Shown: piece after piece, positions 42,514 through 53,796 of the stretch
Position numbering within the stretch: position 1 is the stretch's first letter
How the letters are laid out: every line of letters starts with the position of its first letter
NCBI GenBank assembly: GCA_963664825.1
Contig: OY761614.1
Location: forward strand, 1,824,001-1,888,000
Source: an uncultured Holophaga sp.
Lineage (GTDB): Bacteria; Acidobacteriota; Holophagae; Holophagales; Holophagaceae
Direction: 5' to 3'
Length of the DNA: 64,000 bases
Notes under the pieces: generated by a model
Told to the model about the DNA's origin: nothing
The model's input: only the letters and a program-made list of their open reading frames with translations
Databases searched by the model: none
Translations under genes and position numbers: made by a program

Positions 42514-42590
42514 GCGCCCATAGCTCAGGTGGATAGAGCATCAGCCTTCTAAGCTGGTGGTCGCTGGTTCGAGTCCAGCTGGGCGCACCA
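42514..42590 (+). tRNA. tRNA-Arg(TCT)
   Basis: 77-nt cloverleaf, TCAGC-CT-TCT-AA-GCTGG, CCA end. Confidence 0.96.
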
Positions 42591-42726
42591 ATGAAAAAGC
42601 CCTGAAACGTAACGGTTTCGGGGCTTTTTGTTGTGGATTTAACGAGGGCGTTTTTGGGGCCTTGGGTGCCTCGTCATCACACCGTCATCACGCCCCCGAC
42701 CAATGCCGACCAATGCCCCCCGATGG

Positions 42727-43250: not shown

Positions 43251-43649
43251 CTACCACAAGTTCGCCCTGGCCATCTTTGGTTTCAGCACCTTCTTCTTCC
43301 GCGGCGGCTTCCGGGTCCGAGGCCGGGGAAGGTCTTCTTTGACCCCGCCCGTTAGGGCCTTCTGGAGGCTCTCCAGGAGCTCCAGGGCCCTGAAGTAGTT
43401 CGGGCCATAGGTTGGTGATTTCGTGAATTTCGGGGTGTCGTCATCCCCCCCTGTGTCGCCTGTGTCGCAGGTGCGATTGAATCTCACATACCAGGGGAGA
43501 ACTTCCGTCCAGACGTAATAACACCCAGGCCCCTCGCCATGCCGCGGCAAGCCGTAGTAGTGCCAACGGTGGATTGTCCGCTCTGTCCGCTGGAAAATGA
43601 GGGCCAGCTCGGCTTGTTTAATACAGTTAAAGTTGATCGTTAGCATCAT
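43251..43649 (-). CDS. Lambda Nu1/terminase small subunit-like winged-HTH protein (Rpp-like)
   Basis: KQAELALIFQRTERTIHRWHYYGLP..G.G..Y....VLPWY aligns by eye with the Nu1 DNA-binding domain. Confidence 0.65.
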   Translation of the reverse strand: MMLTINFNCIKQAELALIFQRTERTIHRWHYYGLPRHGEGPGCYYVWTEVLPWYVRFNRTCDTGDTGGDDDTPKFTKSPTYGPNYFRALELLESLQKALTGGVKEDLPRPRTRKPPRKKKVLKPKMARANLW

Positions 43650-43713
43650 ATTTATCCTATGCGAATACGACATGCTTTAAAAATTCAGAGCTAGGTGAAT
43701 GGGGAGCTATGCA

Positions 43714-43933: not shown

Positions 43934-44239
43934 TCATAACGGCCTCACCATCCCCGCCCTTCGTCCCGCCTCAGCCCTGGGAAGGCCTGCCAGGTGCTCC
44001 AGGATCGCGGCGCGTTCTTCTCGGAGGTATCGGGCTTCCTCGGGATCGGCGGCGATGCACAGGGCCTCCAGGGTCAGATCAGTGAGGGAGCCAAGAATGG
44101 GGTCTTTCCAGAGCTTCAGCAGTTCTGCCAGATCGGACGGAAGGGGGCCGTTGCTCCGATATCGGAGACGGCCACCCTCGGCCCAGAGGATTACCCCAAG
44201 GTCCCGGACGTAGCGAACCACCTCCGAGGCGTGGGTCAT
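43934..44239 (-). CDS. Satellite hypothetical protein (TubC_N-like N-terminus, EERAAI motif)
   Basis: LGV.L..EGGRLRY..L...K..IL; ATGA overlap with the primase stop. Confidence 0.65.
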   Translation of the reverse strand: MTHASEVVRYVRDLGVILWAEGGRLRYRSNGPLPSDLAELLKLWKDPILGSLTDLTLEALCIAADPEEARYLREERAAILEHLAGLPRAEAGRRAGMVRPL

Positions 44240-46728
44240 GTGATTTCACCCTCGAAGAGGCATTCCCTCCCAGATCCCCCCCCTGAATCCGCAACTGCCG
44301 CTACTTCCAATAATGGTGCGGGTTTAGGGGTCGCGGATTGGTTGCGTGTCGCCGATTGATCCGCAACTGAGCCCGGATTGGTTGCGCCTGAATCCGCAAC
44401 CGCAACTGTTCCGCAACCGCTAGAACCGCATGAATGCTCATAAGTTGCGGGTTGCGGATCTTTGGGGGGGGTGACGGGGGCAAGGTATCGAGAGAACACA
44501 TCATCGAATTGGGACTTCTGATATCCCTTCCTGGTGACACCGTTAATTTTGAAATCCTTCGAACTGATTTCAAATTCTCCCAACCGCTTGGAAAGTTGGC
44601 GTGGGGATAGTTCCTTGCCAAAGGCGTAGCTTGCCCATGGCTTCGTGTCGTCAGAGGTCAAAGCACTCAGAAGATCGGCAGTCGGAATTCTGTCCACATT
44701 TTTGGCGTCAAAGATTTCCTTGATGTCCGAGAGAAGTTCCGTGGATGTCGAAACGGGGTCGTGCTCGGCTCCCGAGATATGCAGCGCAGCGGCTCGAGCG
44801 AGGTTGGGCCACTCGCCATCGGCGAGGTCTGCAATCGCAAGCAATGGCTCCCAGTTGTCCTGGGCACGGTCGTTCAGCTCCTCGGGGAGGTTGGGGCGGG
44901 CCTGCCCGATGGATGGGCCTGCATCCTCGGCAAACCTCGCCAGCTTGGATGCCAATTGAGAGAATGCTTTTGGGTCTGCATGTCGCAACCGCTGGCATTT
45001 CTCCGCGGGTAGCTTGCGCCGAAGGGTCAGCACAATGGCCCTGTCCATGAGAGTGCCTGCAAGGTGTCCGATGCCACTGATGGCCTTTGCGCCCCAGGTT
45101 GAGAACTGCCGAGGTTCGTGGTCGTCTCCCACTGTTCGGATTACGAAAGCGCTTTGTCGCGTGTGCCCCGAATTGATGACACCTCGCAATTCTTCGTTTT
45201 CCTTCAGGAAGGAATCAGCCTCATCGATTAGCAGAGTAGGGCTGTGGGCCTCAATTACTCGATAGACAGCCGCGGGCGAAATGTTCGAGGCCACCAGAGG
45301 ACGGAAGGACAGGCGACCGATCACGTCCAGCAGTTGAGACTTCCCACACCGCTTTTCAGGTGCGGTGATAACCGCCAAGGGCGCTACCTGAAGGTAGTCG
45401 ATACACCAGGTGAACGCGACCCAGAGGGCGACTGCAATAGACGTGCTTGTGTCGCAAATTATGAAACGGTTTACCGTAGCCCGGATATCGTCTAGCAGGG
45501 TAGCGATGTCCACAGGATCGCCCCAGGGCTCTACCTCTGGGAACATCGCAGCCTTCCCTGCATCCACCTGGTGGTCCTTCTGTGACCCAGCAACGGCTTT
45601 GTCGAGCGCCGTGGCTCTGACGCCCAAGCGCTTCGCTTCGATGACCCGGATCTGTTCGTATTCCATTCTCGGCATTGCAGCAAACCTTGCCACAGCATCG
45701 AGAATTTGCTCGGGTTCCGCATTCGTTGGGGAGGTCTGCGAGCCAGGAGAGGATGCCGCGGTCCTCAACAGGTGCCCCCGGTCCTGGCACTTCGGGGCAG
45801 CGTCTTTCACCTTCTTCCGCAGCTCTTCCAGGCTCCAGGGCGGCTTACACCGTGGGTTATAGCGATCCAGTAGCAGAGACAGGGCCTCGTCTTCTGAGAG
45901 ATCGAAGCCGTCGATCAGCTTCAAAGCATCGTTGAATGTCTTGGTGCCCCCTTCAGCATTTTCGCCTTCCCCGGCGATGGAACCGGGGATGTAATCCAGA
46001 TATCGCCCCGCCCGTTCCAGCACCTCTGCACGGTCCAGGGAGGGGGTGAATCGGATTACATCCCCCTCTGGCTTGCTCTTCTTCGGTGGAATAGGCGGGA
46101 ACGCGGCCCGGATTTCGTCCCGTGTGTAGCGTGGTCCATCGGCTGTCAGCAGCTCTACCGGCTGAGGTTCGGCCTTCCGGTGCATGAAGCCTGGCACCCG
46201 AAGCACCCGTTCCACGGTGCAGGCGGCCTTGTCAGCACCGAAGAGTGCAAGCCCATGCTGAATGGCCTTCAATTCCAATTCGTGCTCACCCCGCCGGGCC
46301 TCATCGGCGCATGGCATGGGGGCTATGGCTAGCCAGTAGAGGTGCCACCCGCCGGGCGTCTTGACCACCATGGAGGGGGCCAGGGGCAACCGTGGAAGGT
46401 CGAAAGTTTCACGGGCGTCCTTCGTATCGAGGTCAGCATGCCATCCCCTGAGGAGCTGGATATTCGCCTTCTTCCGGCCCTGGCCATCGGTTTGATTGAC
46501 GGTCACGAAAACACCCGCGCCGGAATGGTTCAGCCGTTCCAGTTCGGGGGCGGCCTCATCGATAGATTGGGACCAGTGCTTTGCAAGTTCGGGGGCCTTC
46601 CGTGTTTTGTCCTCATCAAAGGTCTGCCAGCGCTCTGGGTTGGTCCAGGCATCGTCTTGGCTGCACTGATTCAGGCAAGCCAGAAAGGGGATAGCAGAGC
46701 CCACGAGGCGCTCTCGGAGGTCGATCAT
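44236..46728 (-). CDS. Primase-helicase (RepB-type AEP primase + DUF3631-type P-loop domain)
   Basis: ADLD, TPGGWHLYW, RVLRVPG; APEKRCGKS, LLIDEAD, RAQDNWEPLLAIAD. Confidence 0.88.
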   Translation of the reverse strand: MIDLRERLVGSAIPFLACLNQCSQDDAWTNPERWQTFDEDKTRKAPELAKHWSQSIDEAAPELERLNHSGAGVFVTVNQTDGQGRKKANIQLLRGWHADLDTKDARETFDLPRLPLAPSMVVKTPGGWHLYWLAIAPMPCADEARRGEHELELKAIQHGLALFGADKAACTVERVLRVPGFMHRKAEPQPVELLTADGPRYTRDEIRAAFPPIPPKKSKPEGDVIRFTPSLDRAEVLERAGRYLDYIPGSIAGEGENAEGGTKTFNDALKLIDGFDLSEDEALSLLLDRYNPRCKPPWSLEELRKKVKDAAPKCQDRGHLLRTAASSPGSQTSPTNAEPEQILDAVARFAAMPRMEYEQIRVIEAKRLGVRATALDKAVAGSQKDHQVDAGKAAMFPEVEPWGDPVDIATLLDDIRATVNRFIICDTSTSIAVALWVAFTWCIDYLQVAPLAVITAPEKRCGKSQLLDVIGRLSFRPLVASNISPAAVYRVIEAHSPTLLIDEADSFLKENEELRGVINSGHTRQSAFVIRTVGDDHEPRQFSTWGAKAISGIGHLAGTLMDRAIVLTLRRKLPAEKCQRLRHADPKAFSQLASKLARFAEDAGPSIGQARPNLPEELNDRAQDNWEPLLAIADLADGEWPNLARAAALHISGAEHDPVSTSTELLSDIKEIFDAKNVDRIPTADLLSALTSDDTKPWASYAFGKELSPRQLSKRLGEFEISSKDFKINGVTRKGYQKSQFDDVFSRYLAPVTPPKDPQPATYEHSCGSSGCGTVAVADSGATNPGSVADQSATRNQSATPKPAPLLEVAAVADSGGGSGRECLFEGEIT
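44289..44457. repeat. Iteron cluster (putative ori) inside the primase 3' end
   Basis: CCGCAAC at 44289, 44361, 44394, 44400 and 44411; inverted GTTGCGG at 44444 and 44451. Confidence 0.7.
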
Positions 46729-46925
46729 TCGCACCCCCCGATGATCCCGCGCTCATTCAGGTAGGCACCTGCCACCCCTGCCAGCAGGTTGAAGTCATCG
46801 GTGCGCAGCTCAAGGCGCTGCATCAAGGCCTCGGGACTTGGGAGGGATTCGAGAGCCTTCATGTTGTGGAATTCTTCGAGCACCAGCGAGGCCGCTACAG
46901 CCGAACAAACCGCGGCGGGGGTCAT
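46725..46925 (-). CDS. Hypothetical protein
   Basis: ATGA overlaps at both ends. Confidence 0.6.
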   Translation of the reverse strand: MTPAAVCSAVAASLVLEEFHNMKALESLPSPEALMQRLELRTDDFNLLAGVAGAYLNERGIIGGCE

Positions 46926-47346: not shown

Positions 47347-47577
47347 TCAGGCCCCCTTCTCGGTGCGGCTCTCGCACCATGCCTGAAGGTCCGAGAGACG
47401 GTATCGAACGAGTGACCCGCATTTCACCCAGGCGGGGCCGTTGGTGCGCTTGCACCTCCAATCGATTAGGGTCAGGGGGCTGATGGCCAAAAAGGCGGCG
47501 GCCGCTTTGGTATCCATCAATCCATCAAGCGGGTGGGGTTCCGCGTGGGGTGTGGGATTTAGATCGGGTTGGGCCAT
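47347..47577 (-). CDS. AlpA/excisionase-type HTH protein
   Basis: GGAGG SD; LMDTKAAAAFL.IS..TL.DWR...GP.WVK.G..VRYR.SDL.AW. Confidence 0.85.
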   Translation of the reverse strand: MAQPDLNPTPHAEPHPLDGLMDTKAAAAFLAISPLTLIDWRCKRTNGPAWVKCGSLVRYRLSDLQAWCESRTEKGA

Positions 47578-47713
47578 GTAGCCTCCAGAGAAGGGCCAAG
47601 CGGGCTTGCTTGGGTCCTTCTCTGGAGGATCAGGTCTGTGCTGGGGTATAGAAAAAACGCAGAAAAGCCCCCATGACGGGGGCGTGTTTTCTGCATGAAT
47701 CGAGTTGATGCCC

Positions 47714-48445
47714 TCAGTCTTGGGCCCGCGCTCCGGCCTCTCGGAATTGCCCATCGGAGGGCTTTTCGCCCGTGGCGGCTTCATGGATGAGGCGGGCCAA
47801 ACGCACTCGCTTTGTGGGTTCCCACTCATGGGCCTCCATCCATTTTTTGCATTTCTTAAGAAGCCAATCCTGGGAGGTTTCCCCTAGCAGCACGTCATCA
47901 AGGGTCTTCCGGCCCAATGCCTTCGCCTTCTTTCTCATCCCGGACGCCTTGCGTCCTGCCCATGCAGACAGGGCTTGGGTGCTCTCCTGCCAGAGCCCAG
48001 GGCCTACAAATTCCGTGAAATGTTCCCCTGAGGTCACTGGGTAGCAGTTCACGAATTCCCCCTCATCCATCGGCGGCAACATTTCGCCACCAGCACGCGA
48101 GAACAGGGCCTTGTCCTCCGCGCTGAAGGCTCTATCCAAGACTTTTCGGGCCCCTGGGCTCAGGTGATTGAGGCGATTGTGGAGGGCCGCGGCACAGTCT
48201 CGGAGGACTTCCAGCTCCTCGGCAACGGCAGCGACACGGCCCGCGTTGCGCTCCGACAACATCATGTCGTAATCCCTCACCAGGGATTCCAGCTCCCGGC
48301 GGGCTTTCGCTTGATCACCAGGGACCAAGATCGGCCATGCCTTCACTAGGCCGATAGCTTCGTCAATCAACGCGTCCCGGCGGAGGCCCCACCGTTCTAT
48401 TCGCTCGATGGCTTCTTGCCCAAGTTCAGGCGGTAGCCAAACCAT
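47714..48445 (-). CDS. Hypothetical protein upstream of alpA
   Basis: 243-aa ORF with GGGAGG SD. Confidence 0.65.
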   Translation of the reverse strand: MVWLPPELGQEAIERIERWGLRRDALIDEAIGLVKAWPILVPGDQAKARRELESLVRDYDMMLSERNAGRVAAVAEELEVLRDCAAALHNRLNHLSPGARKVLDRAFSAEDKALFSRAGGEMLPPMDEGEFVNCYPVTSGEHFTEFVGPGLWQESTQALSAWAGRKASGMRKKAKALGRKTLDDVLLGETSQDWLLKKCKKWMEAHEWEPTKRVRLARLIHEAATGEKPSDGQFREAGARAQD

Positions 48446-48486
48446 TCACACCTCCCACCCGGTGCATTCCCGCAAAAGCAAAAGGG

Positions 48487-48537
48487 GCGCGGCGTTCCGG
48501 TGCGGGAACCGGCTTTCGGGAGCTACCCTAGCCGTGC
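48487..48537 (-). ncRNA. Structured RNA motif, probably int-alpA-like
   Basis: GCACGGC-TA-GGG-TAGCT-CCC-GAAAG-CCGGT-TCCCGC-ACCGG-AAC-GCCGCGC three-way junction between int and alpA. Confidence 0.5.
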
Positions 48538-48548
48538 CGATGGACAGT

Positions 48549-48812
48549 CTACCTTTGTGCTTCCGTCACCGTCTGGTGGAAGGCGATTTCGGAGTATTCC
48601 TCAATCTCCCCCGCGAGGCTATCAAGGCACCCCTGGAAGGCCTTGGCCGTTTGACTGGTGAATGGGGCCCCTTGTGCATACGGCTCCAGGAGGTGAGACA
48701 CCCCCTGCACCTTGCGTTGAATATCTGAGAACGATTCCGCCATGCCATCGGCAAAGTCGAAGGGCGGGATAGGCATGGTTTCAGCGGTTGCAGCAGTCGC
48801 AGCGTGGTTCAC
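48549..48812 (-). CDS. Hypothetical protein
   Basis: AAGGAG SD; GTGA overlap with the upstream ORF. Confidence 0.55.
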   Translation of the reverse strand: MNHAATAATAETMPIPPFDFADGMAESFSDIQRKVQGVSHLLEPYAQGAPFTSQTAKAFQGCLDSLAGEIEEYSEIAFHQTVTEAQR

Positions 48813-49195
48813 AGATTCTCCTTCGAGGAAGGGCGCGTGGCCCGGTTGATTTCGTGAGAGACCATCACCAGGGCTTGGCCCCAGGCGCGGCGGAGGGCGC
48901 GAGCGGCGGCGCGGGGGTCCTCCTGGGCCTCCAGGAAATGGGCAGCTTCCTGGGCTATTTCTTGGACCACCGGGGGCAGCTTGGGCAGTGGATCGGGCGG
49001 CACCTGGCCAGCCAAGGCCACACGAATCAGGTCATCCACCACACGCCACACCGGCATCCCGGCGGCCTCAGCATGGGCCTCCAGGATGGAAGCGGCCTCT
49101 GGGCTCAAGTCCAGGCGCATCCTTGCCACCGGGCCACGCTGGGGCCTCCCGCCCCCCTTTCCTTGTCCCACTCCTGGATTCTTGGCCGTCACCAT
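48809..49195 (-). CDS. Ribbon-helix-helix-like DNA-binding protein
   Basis: GAGGT SD; GRP..RMRLDLSPEA..IL..HA...G....VVDDLI. Confidence 0.55.
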   Translation of the reverse strand: MVTAKNPGVGQGKGGGRPQRGPVARMRLDLSPEAASILEAHAEAAGMPVWRVVDDLIRVALAGQVPPDPLPKLPPVVQEIAQEAAHFLEAQEDPRAAARALRRAWGQALVMVSHEINRATRPSSKENL

Positions 49196-49264
49196 GGCTC
49201 ACCTCTGCCCAAGAGGATGCTCTCGCGCGCGCGAGGAATCAAGAACGTTTTTGGGGCCCGAATA

Positions 49265-49292
49265 GCTTTCGATAACGTCCATTATGTAACTC
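49265..49292 (+). other. dif-like XerC/D site
   Basis: GCTTTCGATAA-CGTCCA-TTATGTAACTC, 11-6-11 geometry with ATAA/TTATGT core. Confidence 0.6.
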
Positions 49293-49319
49293 AGAACTGC
49301 TCGTAAGTCTAACCATTTC

Positions 49320-49950
49320 AATGCTGAAATTTCAGCCATGGAATAATCATGTAGTGGGAAGCCTCCGGAGTTTTCGCCCTTTTCGGCGAAAACCTCAAAG
49401 TCCCTGTGCTCAAAAAGTCGGGCACGGGCGAGAGGATGACATTGACTGTCGGGCAGCATCCGACAACAGGTGCTCCCCCGCGCGTGAGGGTGGAAGGGTT
49501 TTCCGGAATATTCCGGGAAACTCCACCGGGGTGCTCCCCCGCGCGTGAGGGTGGAAGGGGGGTTATTCCGATTAACACCCCTGGAGGCTGGGTGCTCCCC
49601 CGCGCGTGAGGGTGGAAGGGGGTCGCGTTTCAAACGCGACCCTTGGCAATGGAGGGTCGGATTCGAAATCCAACCCCCTCCAGTTCGGACTTCTCGATTC
49701 CAAATCGGAAAGTGCGGGCTCTCGGCTACCAATCCTCGAACCGGACTCAGATCATCAGCCACATTCCGGAGGAGTGGAAGGGTAGCATTCGGATTGCCAC
49801 CCTCTGGAAGGGGTGAACATTTTGGACCCCCCTTTGCAGGGAACCTCAGAGATATCTCCGGGATGTGCAACCGTACTCATTTGCTCACCCCCCCCAGCGC
49901 AGGGAGACCAAGCCCGGCGGGGTTCTTTCCAGATTCGGAAAGAACCTCGA
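49320..49950. repeat. Array of ~13 different adjacent palindromes (right arm of satellite)
   Basis: e.g. GCTGAAATTTCAGC; GTTTTCGCC-6-GGCGAAAAC; GGGTCGCGTTT-C-AAACGCGACCC; GGTTCTTTCC-6-GGAAAGAACC. Confidence 0.85.
49470..49620 (+). CRISPR. Cas-less mini CRISPR-like array, type I-E geometry (3 repeats, 2 spacers)
   Basis: GTGCTCCCCCGCGCGTGAGGGTGGAAGGG (29 bp) identical at 49470, 49531 and 49592; unrelated 32-bp spacers; period 61. Confidence 0.6.
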
Positions 49951-50109
49951 GGCCTCCAGGAAAGGGACAGTTGGGACATCTCTTCCAGTTCTCAAGAAAA
50001 GACTGTCCCACGGCAAACCCTTGCCACCACTATCTAAGGGACTAAAGGGACTAAAGGGACAAGAAAGAGATATACCCCCCCTAAGTTTCCCTTCAACCGG
50101 GGCGAGACT

Positions 50110-51450
50110 TCAGGCCCCGGCCTTCTTTCTGGCCTTAGCCTGGGCCTTCCGGCGGGCCTCCAGTTCCTTCTCTGGATCGATCTTGCCGGTCAGGATGCCT
50201 TCGATCCGGGCCCCGATCTTCTCCGCTGCATCGTGGAGGGGTTCCGCGGCGGTCCTGGTGTAAATGTCAGTCACCGATGCTTCCGCATGGCCTAGCAGCT
50301 CCCCCACGAAGCCCTTGAGGCCCAGGTCAGCTCCCACACTGGCGAAGGTGCGCCGGAGATCATGCCAGCCGGGATCTTCTTCTGTAGGTTCACCCTGGGT
50401 TGCCAGCTTTGCGGCCTCCCGGATGCGCTCCCATGGCCCCTGGAGGCCTATGATTGGCTTCCATCCGATTATCTTTCCCTCCTTCCCCTTCTTGTCTTTG
50501 AGTGGGAGGCCGGGCACCACGTAAGGGCATCCAAGGGTAGGTGTGAGGGCCCGGATGTGAGCCAGGAGGGCATTGCATAGATGCACCACTCGAGTCTTGC
50601 CGGTCTTCTTGCCCGTCTTGTGGAAGGCGGGCGGGATGTGGATTTCCCCGGCGTCCAGGTCGATCCACTCCCAGCGCAGGGCCTGAATTTCACCCTTCCT
50701 CATGCCAGCCAGGAGGGCCAGCCGCACGGCAAGGATGTACTTCGGCGCTTCCTCCGAGGCCTTCAGGGTGAGGCCCAGGGCCTTCAGCTCCATATCTGTG
50801 AGGCGTATGGTTCGCTTCATTTCCGGGGCGCGTTTCTTCACCACGGAAACGGGATTGGAGCCCGTAGGCCTCAGCCCCCATTCTTCAGCCCGGTCCAGCA
50901 TCGTGTGGAATACTGCCCTCACGATGTTGGCAATCCTGGGGGTTTTTCTCAGCTTGAAGAGTAAGGCCGATACCTCAGGCGGTCCCACCAGGGCCAGGGG
51001 CATCTTCCCCAGCGTGGGGAGAAGGTCTTTCTTGATCAGCCGGGTAGACTCCTTCGCCCATTTTGGGGAAAGGGTTGGCGTGTGTTCAATGAAGTAGCGG
51101 TCCGCCAGGTCTGAGACGGTGAACGTGCCCCGCTTGGCCGCAGCAGCCGCGGCGCGGGCGTCTGCCTTGGCTTGGCCTGGATCGGTCCCGGCGTTGATGA
51201 GCGTCCAAATGGGGCTATGGGCTATACCGGCCGCGTCCGGGGTCATGGCGGGGAAGGTCCCCATGGTGTGGATCTTCTGCCTTCCATTGAATCGGTAGCG
51301 CAGCACGAAAGATTTCGCACCGGCCTTGGTCACCTGGAGGCAGAGCCCCTTGTATCCCGTCACTGGATAGAAGCGCGTCCCGGCAGGGTCAGCCACCAGG
51401 GCGTTCACATCCGTCTTGGTCAATCGGATGGCCTTCTCGCTGCTCCTCAT
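50110..51450 (-). CDS. int: Tyrosine integrase with arm-binding domain (P4-like)
   Basis: GL.L.V...G.KS arm domain; GMRKGEI, HDLRRT, LLGH, TDIY; adjacent to attR. Confidence 0.95.
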   Translation of the reverse strand: MRSSEKAIRLTKTDVNALVADPAGTRFYPVTGYKGLCLQVTKAGAKSFVLRYRFNGRQKIHTMGTFPAMTPDAAGIAHSPIWTLINAGTDPGQAKADARAAAAAAKRGTFTVSDLADRYFIEHTPTLSPKWAKESTRLIKKDLLPTLGKMPLALVGPPEVSALLFKLRKTPRIANIVRAVFHTMLDRAEEWGLRPTGSNPVSVVKKRAPEMKRTIRLTDMELKALGLTLKASEEAPKYILAVRLALLAGMRKGEIQALRWEWIDLDAGEIHIPPAFHKTGKKTGKTRVVHLCNALLAHIRALTPTLGCPYVVPGLPLKDKKGKEGKIIGWKPIIGLQGPWERIREAAKLATQGEPTEEDPGWHDLRRTFASVGADLGLKGFVGELLGHAEASVTDIYTRTAAEPLHDAAEKIGARIEGILTGKIDPEKELEARRKAQAKARKKAGA

Positions 51451-51684
51451 GGGCCCCTCGAAAATGTGATGACAGGCGTTCCGTCATCACACCATCATCA
51501 CACTTTCGGCCAATGCGCACCAATTAGTTCATGTATGGATCAACCTCATCCATGGCTAAGTTGCTTTGTTTCCAATACAGCCCAATTTGTGCCCATGCGC
51601 TACAAATGGCCTATACCAGACTTCTAAGCTGGTGGTCGCTGGTTCGAGTCCAGCTGGGCGCACCAATATTTTTGAGGCCTCGGT

Positions 51685-52264: not shown

Positions 52265-52284
52265 TGTAAACCTATGGGTTGACA
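52265..52284 (+). promoter_or_regulatory. Putative TA operator
   Basis: TGTAAACC-TATG-GGTTGACA inverted repeat 11 nt before the toxin ATG. Confidence 0.5.
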
Positions 52285-52295
52285 AGGACGCCGGA

Positions 52296-52757
52296 ATGCC
52301 AAGTCACACACTCCCATGGATCACCGGGGGATCCCATTGTGAGATCCACTGGCTCTTTGAGGACAACAAATGGGACCCCAAGCCCTACTTTGACGAACAC
52401 CAGTATCCAGGCGCTCAGGTTCGCCTGGAACGCATCGTCAGGCTTTTTGCAGCTTCCGGTCGTCTTCCACGTGACAAAGGACATTGGCGAACAGGTCCAG
52501 CCCCGCAGAACAAACTCTACGAGTTCAAGGACATCTCCAGTGGTCTTCGGCTTCTGGCTTTTAGCTTCACTCAACTTTCTGGCGTCTGCTGGTTCATCGT
52601 GGCGCTTGGGGCAACAAAAGACAGGGGAGACATCACACCTGAAGCTGCGGATCGGGCGATACAAAGACGTCAACGATTCCTTGATGCCAATCATCCTAAG
52701 GGTTTGCCCGAGTCACGATTGCAACCGACCGGCACACAGCCCAGAAAGAGGCGATGA
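52296..52757 (+). CDS. RelE/HigB (Gp49-like) toxin of a TAC system
   Basis: LYEFK...LRLLAF....IV..G..K pattern; first gene of the triad. Confidence 0.65.
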   Translation: MPSHTLPWITGGSHCEIHWLFEDNKWDPKPYFDEHQYPGAQVRLERIVRLFAASGRLPRDKGHWRTGPAPQNKLYEFKDISSGLRLLAFSFTQLSGVCWFIVALGATKDRGDITPEAADRAIQRRQRFLDANHPKGLPESRLQPTGTQPRKRR

Positions 52758-52758
52758 G

Positions 52759-53220
52759 ATGACTAAGTCCATGAAAATCCATGACAGTGCCATCGACAGG
52801 TTTGAGCAGGCCATCCACGAAGAACAGGACCGGCTTTCCCAAGATTTCTTCCAATCGCTCCAGACTCGAATGGAAGAGCTGAACATGTCCCAGTCCGACA
52901 TGGCTTTCACCCTTGGCAAGAGCCGAGCCTATGTGTCCAAGCTCTTTTCCAAAGGCCAGAACCTGACCATCAAGACGATGGTTGAACTCGCCCAATCCTT
53001 GGACATGAAGGTGGCGATCTCTACCAGGGCCATTTGGCTCGAAGCTATGTCGGTCGCAAAAACGACGCCCTTGCAGTGCAAGGGCTGGACTCCGAATCGA
53101 ACCCTCTCATTGGCGCCCACCCAAGTCAGAAGAACAGGGGCCAAGGGCGACTCCACAAAAGTGTCTTGGGGCGATCACACACAGCAAGCCAAGTCCCCTC
53201 TGCTTCAACAAACAAGCTAG
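52759..53220 (+). CDS. XRE-HTH antitoxin (HigA-like) with C-terminal extension
   Basis: MEELNMSQSDMAFTLGKSRAYVSKLF...NLTIKTMVELAQSL plus a ~55-aa low-structure tail. Confidence 0.8.
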   Translation: MTKSMKIHDSAIDRFEQAIHEEQDRLSQDFFQSLQTRMEELNMSQSDMAFTLGKSRAYVSKLFSKGQNLTIKTMVELAQSLDMKVAISTRAIWLEAMSVAKTTPLQCKGWTPNRTLSLAPTQVRRTGAKGDSTKVSWGDHTQQAKSPLLQQTS

Positions 53221-53796
53221 GTGAGAACCATGTTCAAGCTCAACTTCCCTGATACCTCTGCCAAGGAATTCAATCTCGCTGCTACCGTCGCCAAGGTTGT
53301 GGAGTTGACCGATCTAAAAATGGTCGACGGAGAATTCGGCCCCACCCCTCAGGTAGAGAAGAAGGCGAAATCGAAGTCCAAGGATGTGCCCTATGAATTT
53401 GGTTTCAGGTCTCGATTTGATGAAAAAGAAAACCGCCTTGAGGCAATGATCACCATTGAAGGCAGAGACATCCGCAACGCCACCGGTGAGGGCGCTGGCG
53501 GAACCGGCTTGCGGGTTAAGGCAACGTTCCTGTTGACCTACCAAGTGATGGTCGAGCCTCCACCTAAAGATGTCAGAGAAGCCTTTTTCACAGCCTTTGC
53601 TCAAGTCAATGGCCTCATGAATATTTGGCCTTACTACCGGGAGTTCGCTCACGAAGCGGCACGTCGCTTGGGTGTCCCTAACGTAATCGTTCCCCTCCTC
53701 CGCGTGGAGCCCAAACCTGAGCCTAAGGCTCCCCGTGGCCCTGTGAAAGAGAGGAACCCTAAGGCTCTGAGCACCAAGCGGGTTTCCAAAGGTTAA
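53221..53796 (+). CDS. SecB-like chaperone
   Basis: Beta-rich body ending in N....IWPYYREF....RRLG.P...PLL (SecB helix signature); ATG at 53230 is an alternative start. Confidence 0.7.
   Translation: MRTMFKLNFPDTSAKEFNLAATVAKVVELTDLKMVDGEFGPTPQVEKKAKSKSKDVPYEFGFRSRFDEKENRLEAMITIEGRDIRNATGEGAGGTGLRVKATFLLTYQVMVEPPPKDVREAFFTAFAQVNGLMNIWPYYREFAHEAARRLGVPNVIVPLLRVEPKPEPKAPRGPVKERNPKALSTKRVSKG

Follow-up and report, generated by a model that had tools for sequence, protein, structure and literature searches.

A cas-less mini-array with type I-E geometry and palindromic inserts resembling phage antirepressor genes in a PICI-like satellite of an uncultured Holophaga

What does a short array with the geometry of a type I-E CRISPR system do in a mobile element, when each of its repeats is followed directly by a palindrome? 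The question is raised by the window, a 64,000-nucleotide stretch of an uncultured Holophaga genome (contig OY761614.1), for which a first-pass annotation had proposed three roles: a mini-array that hijacks Cascade, a Racr or Cas6 decoy, or a scaffold that receives inserted palindrome units. Its description of the array is borne out by the sequence. The three 29-bp repeats are identical and recur at a period of 61/61, both 32-nt spacers read as quoted, and an inverted repeat directly follows each repeat (49498-49521, 49556-49582 and 49620-49642; Table 1). Because a G precedes all three copies, giving a conserved block of 30 nt, the repeat register is ambiguous by one base. The Rha palindrome after repeat 3 has no closing repeat. 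The 29-mer is unique in the 3.47-Mb genome, where the next-best sites have 8 mismatches; there were no copies in viral contigs or in metagenome contigs, and at up to three mismatches none in the 132 other family genomes. Contigs of sequencing run X2, which may be the same strain, cover the array stretch without differing letters and back the assembly. A coding reading of the array was rejected, as the long open reading frames across it have no Pfam or PHROG match. The lack of an AT-rich leader holds for the 100 nt upstream (55% GC) but not for 49255-49354 (40% GC), a stretch rejected as a leader since it is the dif-like site. On either side of the array, resemblance to the host leader does not exceed background, and no IHF-like motif was found.

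Table 1. Features of the satellite and of its slot (positions in the window)
Feature	Position	Strand	Remark
tRNA-Arg(TCT) with left att core 42546-42592	42514..42592	+	
Possible small terminase	43251..43673	-	phrog_57, weak, E 0.012
Primase-like protein, RepB primase + DUF3631	44236..46734	-	
HTH_17 excisionase-like ORF	47347..47829	-	E 9.4e-5, below cut-off; phrog_66
128-aa gene (ORF128), ribbon-helix-helix-like by eye, conserved slot neighbour	48809..49195	-	
CG-rich conserved element (the 49217 "copy")	49214..49245	-	9 ORF128-family loci including own
dif-like site	49263..49290	+	4/28 mismatches to one other genome place, G000:3267910
AntA gene fragment with palindrome 49370-49393	49364..49419	-	
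Short palindrome left of repeat 1	49447..49465		not above control
Repeat 1	49470..49498	+	29 bp; conserved block 49469-49498
Spacer 1, palindrome, AntA-like reading, assignment not significant	49499..49530	+	21/32 to AntA gene L068
Repeat 2	49531..49559	+	
Spacer 2, Bro-N gene palindrome, reads GVIPINTPGG	49560..49591	+	L036, G091 matches
Repeat 3	49592..49620	+	
32 bases after repeat 3, Rha gene palindrome, reads VAFQTRPL	49621..49652	+	Apricot gp58 match
Two palindromes, Rha-like readings (49654-49676, 49686-49716)	49654..49716	+	
Bro-N gene fragment, 35 codons, ends in palindrome 49779-49803, then stop	49709..49813	+	
Three palindromes, Bro-N-like and AntA-like by reading	about 49806-49838, 49860-49891, 49918-49949		not clearly above control
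GGGAC(A/T) motif cluster	49964..50061		6/11 of the satellite's such motifs
Tyrosine integrase	50110..51450	-	PF00589, PF13356; phrog_1
Right att core, 47-bp direct repeat of tRNA 3′ half	51621..51667	+	

The array lies in a mobile element, as had been proposed, here delimited as 9.1 kb between copies of a 47-bp direct repeat of the tRNA-Arg(TCT) 3′ half. All listed satellite genes are on the minus strand, and the element also encodes a TubC_N protein; no capsid gene was recognised among the 11 ORFs scanned against Pfam and PHROG. The PICI core list comprises an integrase, a regulator, a primase, a small terminase and att repeats, with no structural or lysis genes (PMC10085698). By gene content the element appears to be a PICI-like satellite, in which the integrase, the primase-like gene and the att repeats are clear, the HTH_17 match is sub-cut-off and the small terminase match is weak. 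The array sits in a non-coding slot between the dif-like site and the integrase stop. The dif-like site is presumably of that kind by its resemblance to G000:3267910, which we take to be the chromosomal dif, and its possible roles include XerCD dimer resolution and cargo exchange. Dif-like sites with a variable centre also lie between the 128-aa gene and the cargo slot in L013-L016, L024 and L026; in L019 a perfect palindrome with 23-bp arms, about 50-100 nt upstream of the ORF128 homologue, takes the place of the dif-like site, and a weaker one does so in L017.

The ORF128 family is present in 12 of 133 family genomes, and ORF128 has no significant Pfam or named PHROG match. Relatives were not confirmed in metagenome contigs, and viral contigs gave one weak, unrelated match. 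Upstream of this gene, the diverged repeat copy reported at 49217 does match 16 of the first 20 repeat bases, but the element is conserved in satellites without any array and is probably the promoter spacer of the 128-aa gene; a promoter scan that included it called no sites. Nine related satellites have a readable slot, of which two have one palindrome with a score of at least 8 and a third has one by eye; the repeat is in none.

A cognate CRISPR system is present in the host. As first annotated, the window is free of cas genes; Cas1, Cas7 and Cas6e were each found once, at G000:465912-469148, and the search for type I-E cas genes elsewhere in the genome yielded a complete locus (cas3, Cascade and cas1-cas2) 1.4 Mb away. 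The host array has 108 repeats, with 106 of the 107 intervals at 32 nt, and the 29+32 type I-E geometry recognised in the slot is that of the host's own array. The genome has 11 repeat clusters with a period of 50-90, three of them with period 61: the host array, the slot array and a second cas-less mini-array. The second mini-array (G000:C1:2797584-2797734, equivalent to L109:17584-17734) has three repeats and sits in an integrase-bearing element beside tRNA-Thr; the repeat has a 5-bp stem and agrees with that of the host at 23/29 positions. Its second spacer matches the host chromosome at 32/32 (G000:1700705, minus strand), with AGG before the match, in a long hairpin between two genes reading as ahpC and ahpD; by this match it is a self-target in a genome with cas3.

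The slot array is a variant of the mobile-element mini-array, since it is on a mobile element, lacks cas genes and has a cognate system in its host. Cas-less mini-arrays are known in SPV1 and SPV2 of Sulfolobales, and leaderless phage mini-arrays are mentioned in the same source (PMC6858448). The SPV1/SPV2 arrays are alike in having few spacers, no cas genes, host-system geometry and spacers from other mobile elements. Their repeats and leaders resemble those of the host (PMC6858448), whereas the slot array reaches 19/29 at best, has a broken stem and is leaderless, and its inserts are all palindromes inside a larger repeat-less collection.

The inserts appear to be pieces of phage antirepressor genes rather than generic hairpins, and to belong to that larger collection. 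By BLAST, the 32-mer after repeat 3 matches gp58 of Gordonia phage Apricot, a Rha-KilAC protein (Pfam Phage_pRha), at 28/28 nt, and at 29/32 across the unit. The exact 21-nt core of this palindrome is found at 35 viral and 46 genome loci, and 45 of the 81 are in rha coding sequence by a conservative motif test. Spacer 2 reaches 24/32 against the Bro-N gene L036, a level attained by none of 30 controls, and 89% over 36 nt (E 9.8e-5) against a Bro-N fragment in G091. Spacer 1 reaches 21/32 at the hot-spot codons of the AntA gene L068, as do 3/30 controls, and its resemblance to AntA, by reading only, is not significant. Exact protospacers of spacers 1 and 2 were absent from viral contigs, and in the genome itself both spacers found only themselves at up to 8 mismatches.

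Ordinary spacers do not look like this. None of the 227 spacers in the family's ordinary arrays reaches 22/32 to the hot-spot set and spacer 2 reaches 24, which argues for selection or strong capture bias; the Rha core being over-represented in that set, only spacer 2, and not the Rha units, makes a clean test. Palindromes are general in genes of the Bro-N, Rha and AntA families, being present at a score of at least 9 in the first 750 nt of 37/45 loci from the host's family, compared with 41/200 random stretches, and in each family one variable codon position holds the palindrome. A search with 18 gene palindromes gave one weak extra copy in 376 kb of their own prophage regions, where foreign palindromes were no fewer. 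In the host genome, the Bro-N family is represented by a single match, which lacks a palindrome, and Rha and AntA gave none. The literature searched, which took in few subscription papers, held no account of coding palindromes in Bro-N, Rha or AntA genes, of collections of them, or of arrays holding them. PMC8263062 does no more than mention rha and Bro-N genes next to the anti-satellite loci of ICP1.

The Rha core also has intergenic copies. In the viral contigs L089, L096 and L105 it is intergenic, with longer perfect arms in two of the three, and in L089 and L105 the DNA just downstream of it resembles a promoter and leads to an antirepressor gene. Chloroflexi genomes (L129, L138, L142, L147 and L155) have the 21-mer between genes, there flanked by TAG/CTA, in copies that we take to resemble REP elements and to be probably unrelated.

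Palindromes extend on both sides of the array without repeats, and most of the slot palindromes are repeat-less. Between 49350 and 49960 there are nine palindrome calls at a score of at least 8 (eight distinct, as one overlies two others); the maximum in 500 random windows was 6. The slot of about 600 bp holds some ten Bro-N, Rha and AntA gene pieces, each cut down to the palindrome inside it, with 5 of 15 slot elements not clearly above controls against a 42-gene set and several more borderline. The AntA fragment left of the array is 90.6% identical over 32 nt to the AntA gene of phage JNU_P10 and matches AntA gene L068 at 29/31 (E 1.1e-5). Right of the array, the palindrome at 49654-49676 has 95% identity, across 21 nt, to sequence within the Rha match of G148, and its neighbour at 49686-49716 appears Rha-like by translation only. 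The Bro-N fragment matches L037 by blastp at E 8e-7 in a 45-protein set and L039 at 55/91 nt, where controls reached at most 46. Searching phages by tblastn with the slot's coding readings gave E 4 only. A plasmid search returned 123 matches, and among the 40 listed one was to AntA and the remainder were short chance matches. Rfam found nothing at gathering score over the slot (best E 0.11) and no CRISPR-DR match on the repeats. The GGGAC(A/T) cluster at the integrase side, which we presume to be iteron-like, is far from the primase gene and may be another kind of captured site.

Variation in the slot was read from contigs of four of the 15 listed runs, namely X2 and three peat metagenomes of separate studies, the peat evidence being single contigs at a depth of about 2. 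An X6 contig joins 49490 to 49614, leaving a single repeat that is one base shorter and neither spacer; this may be the ancestral state or a deletion product. The 49918-49949 palindrome of X6 shows two changes, T>C and A>G, that compensate each other, and one change that breaks a pair. In X7 the spacer-2 palindrome stands elsewhere, immediately in front of the 49806 element, and 49654-49676 is occupied by another palindrome, whose arms are perfect.

Comparable arrangements exist in other hosts. An Actinomycetes MAG (L139) has a six-repeat array with periods of 62, 60, 62, 60 and 61, between two serine resolvase genes and adjoining restriction-modification genes, which is a clear type I-E mini-array in an unrelated actinobacterial mobile region. 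Four of its five spacers are palindromic and three match rha loci at 27-31/32, one Rha spacer being present by construction since the array was found via the Rha core. Its repeat forms the canonical stem by folding prediction, and the 31/32 match has an AAG-type PAM on neither strand. No third array was found with a Rha palindrome beside a type I-E repeat start, two viral matches being chance on inspection. Four of 401 G157-related genomes matched, and the array is that of G157 alone, the other three being judged by the matched string only. A Cas6e search of G157-G159 gave no match, with the control recovered in only 1/14 genomes. Collections without repeats were also found: 11 palindromes lie within 300 nt of the core at a Cryobacterium prophage end (L128), a smaller cluster is present in Microbacterium (L118), and G091 has paired Rha-type palindromes near an att end. 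Over a wider stretch at the Cryobacterium lactosi prophage end (L128 / L198:6500-7400), about 14 antirepressor-type palindromes occupy 900 bp, again with no repeats.

How did palindromes come to stand between repeats of this size? Probably the host's Cas1-Cas2 took one repeat-like site in the slot as an off-target and twice inserted a palindrome there. This origin is favoured by the host geometry, by unrelated inserts from different gene families, by the single-repeat state and by the insert boundaries. A G stands directly before each of the three inserts. The 17 rha loci that share the right flank have AAG (16) or AGG (1) immediately before the unit, and AGG precedes it in the closest Bro-N piece (G091), with none for spacer 1, all of these flanks being read from homologues and not from true targets. 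In the type I-E system of E. coli, the G that directly follows the repeat derives from the AAG PAM, and integration at other, off-target genomic sites is on record (PMC7054753). The AGG before the 32/32 match of the second mini-array's spacer also favours a Cas1-Cas2 origin.

Several observations weaken it. The slot repeat is most similar to host and family type I-E repeats on the minus strand (19/29; 11-16/29 ungapped on the plus strand), and the PAM logic points to the plus strand. The 19/29 similarity has a shuffle p of 1.5e-4, yet 158 other genome places reach it, and the repeat is equally like the 49217 promoter element (16-20/29 across the nine loci). As the 3′ end of the repeat is identical to the gene flank in front of Bro-N and Rha palindromes, the AAG/AGG at the junctions could reflect microhomology. 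The missing leader and IHF-like motif, the lack of an AAG-type PAM in L139, and the chance that the single repeat in peat, at a depth of about 2, is a deletion product further weaken this origin. Off-target or "neo" type I-E arrays, reportedly described under Cas1-Cas2 overproduction in E. coli, are alike in that inserts the size of a spacer stand at a degenerate site resembling the repeat, outside the cas locus, with a PAM-derived G after the repeat; the slot case differs in that it occurs naturally, is carried by a satellite and has inserts of a single sequence class.

The explanation that we favour, tentatively and at somewhat below an even chance, is that the array would be a by-product or tool of type I-E spacer acquisition within the satellite's collection of antirepressor palindromes, and would act as DNA and not as guide RNA. 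The slot would gather palindromes by recombination and, twice, by spacer acquisition. The pieces might be kept since their palindromes bind Bro-network proteins, in which case a multicopy satellite could titrate or sense the antirepressors of helpers and rivals; this decoy step is weaker than the Cas1-Cas2 step. Of the three roles first proposed, the scaffold that receives inserted palindrome units is the one that the evidence supports. A DNA-level reading is favoured because most slot palindromes are repeat-less, repeat-less collections exist elsewhere (L128) and the repeat is predicted not to fold a Cas6e stem. Also in its favour are spacer 2, at 24/32 to the hot-spot set where 0/227 ordinary spacers reach 22/32, the independent L139 array with four palindromic spacers out of five, and the compensatory pair of X6 and the replaced palindrome with perfect arms in X7. 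The small share of related satellites with a palindrome of score at least 8 (2/9), none with the repeat, weakens the explanation as a whole, and the decoy step is weakened by the near absence of further copies of the gene palindromes from the prophage regions to which they belong.

A close rival of this explanation, held to be somewhat less probable, is that the slot holds neutral relics of a decayed "Bro zone": the satellite would have taken up Bro-network genes time and again, of which recombination at hairpins and G/C-rich flanks left only the palindromes, the array being an accident of off-target acquisition or of unit duplication with palindrome exchange. Gram-negative PICIs have, after the integration zone, a dynamic zone of domain-swapping Bro-network genes, and the slot is alike in its position after the integrase, its dynamic character and its Bro-N/AntA/Rha-family material; the Bro zone consists of whole domain-swapping genes, whereas the slot has fragments trimmed to palindromes, and the string "palindrom" is absent from the main text of the source (PMC10111431). 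Real gene fragments with flanks are present in the slot, other elements have one or two such relics next to their integrases and att ends (L234, L259 and L118), operator-like extra copies are lacking and most related satellites have no collection, all of which would suit relics. Relics would, however, need both 32-bp inserts and four of the five L139 spacers to be palindromes of this class, when 0/227 ordinary spacers are alike, a comparison in which only spacer 2 is a clean test. Against relics stand, too, the close juxtaposition of three protein families whose flanks are trimmed to a few codons, and the absence of host terminators from the slot.

Much less probable is the first of the proposed roles, in which the array would be transcribed and direct host Cascade to the antirepressor genes of helper or rival phages, the palindromes, conserved across phyla, being broad and escape-resistant targets. 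It would accord with a geometry shared with the host system, the AAG/AGG flanks, the wide distribution of the 21-mer after repeat 3 (45/81 loci in rha coding sequence), the intact stem of the actinobacterial array and the precedent of mini-arrays in virus-virus conflict (PMC6858448). Folding predictions point the other way. The canonical 6-bp Cas6e stem of the repeat has a pair probability of 0.00 on either strand, whether folded alone or in context; the median over 105 host repeats is 0.99. The would-be crRNAs are predicted to fold into spacer hairpins of -21 to -28 kcal/mol. There is no leader and no promoter was called, most slot palindromes are repeat-less, and exact protospacers of spacers 1 and 2 were not found in viral contigs. 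In view of the stem prediction the hijacking role is not supported, less firmly so than the Racr or Cas6 decoy. Because the canonical stem is predicted to form on neither strand and the leader is absent, guide and Racr functions are both disfavoured; the array probably makes no RNA guides, and it is not classed as a functional type I-E array, a Racr or a Cracr.

We think it more improbable still that the palindromes are silent donor cassettes, which would recombine into antirepressor genes and alter the variable DNA-contacting segment of helper-phage proteins. The position of the palindrome at one variable codon position per family, the retention of family flanks, and the same flanks around different cores in L139, L259 and run X7 would fit such an exchange, but the satellite encodes no gene that could receive them, the only host match to the three families is of the Bro-N family and carries no palindrome, and the flanks are often shorter than 10 nt.

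A Racr or Cracr role, in which the RNA would tie up Cas6/Cas7 or shut down the cas promoter, is hardly credible: such repeat mimics on mobile elements whose host has the matching system, as the slot repeat is in a type I-E host, have been described for type I-E together with Cracr arrays (PMC10651486; bioRxiv 10.1101/2024.10.29.618823), but Racrs are solitary and need their stem, which is essential in RacrIF1 (PMC10651486), where the slot has three copies whose stem is predicted not to form (pair probability 0.00 on either strand; 0.99 in the host repeat). Cracrs match the casA promoter (bioRxiv 10.1101/2024.10.29.618823), where the slot spacers give cas promoter seeds of 9-10 nt at best, none in two promoter stretches or with AAG/AGG, and no acr-like neighbour was recognised with Pfam or PHROG.

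To return to spacer acquisition within a palindrome collection, its broader form is doubtful: mobile elements in at least two phyla would use host Cas1-Cas2 as a site-capture device and archive the conserved Bro-N, Rha and AntA palindromes in degenerate arrays, as DNA decoys or sensors for the proteins. If true, site capture would be a use of CRISPR adaptation without crRNA, and the slot a natural instance of off-target type I-E acquisition whose outcome is not a guide. The "antirepressors" of the Bro-N, Rha and AntA families rank with the most common regulators of phages, and a palindrome-gathering satellite makes it testable whether these proteins bind the palindrome of their own gene and whether satellites exploit that binding.

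Two minor observations concern the surroundings of the slot. The Rfam int-alpA RNA has a weak match at 48469-48538 on the minus strand (28.9 bits, gathering 35.8, E 0.017). An HTH_3 gene and its flanking ORFs at 52279-53796, in DNA of lower GC that adjoins attR on its outer side, look by eye like a module of the toxin-antitoxin-chaperone type.
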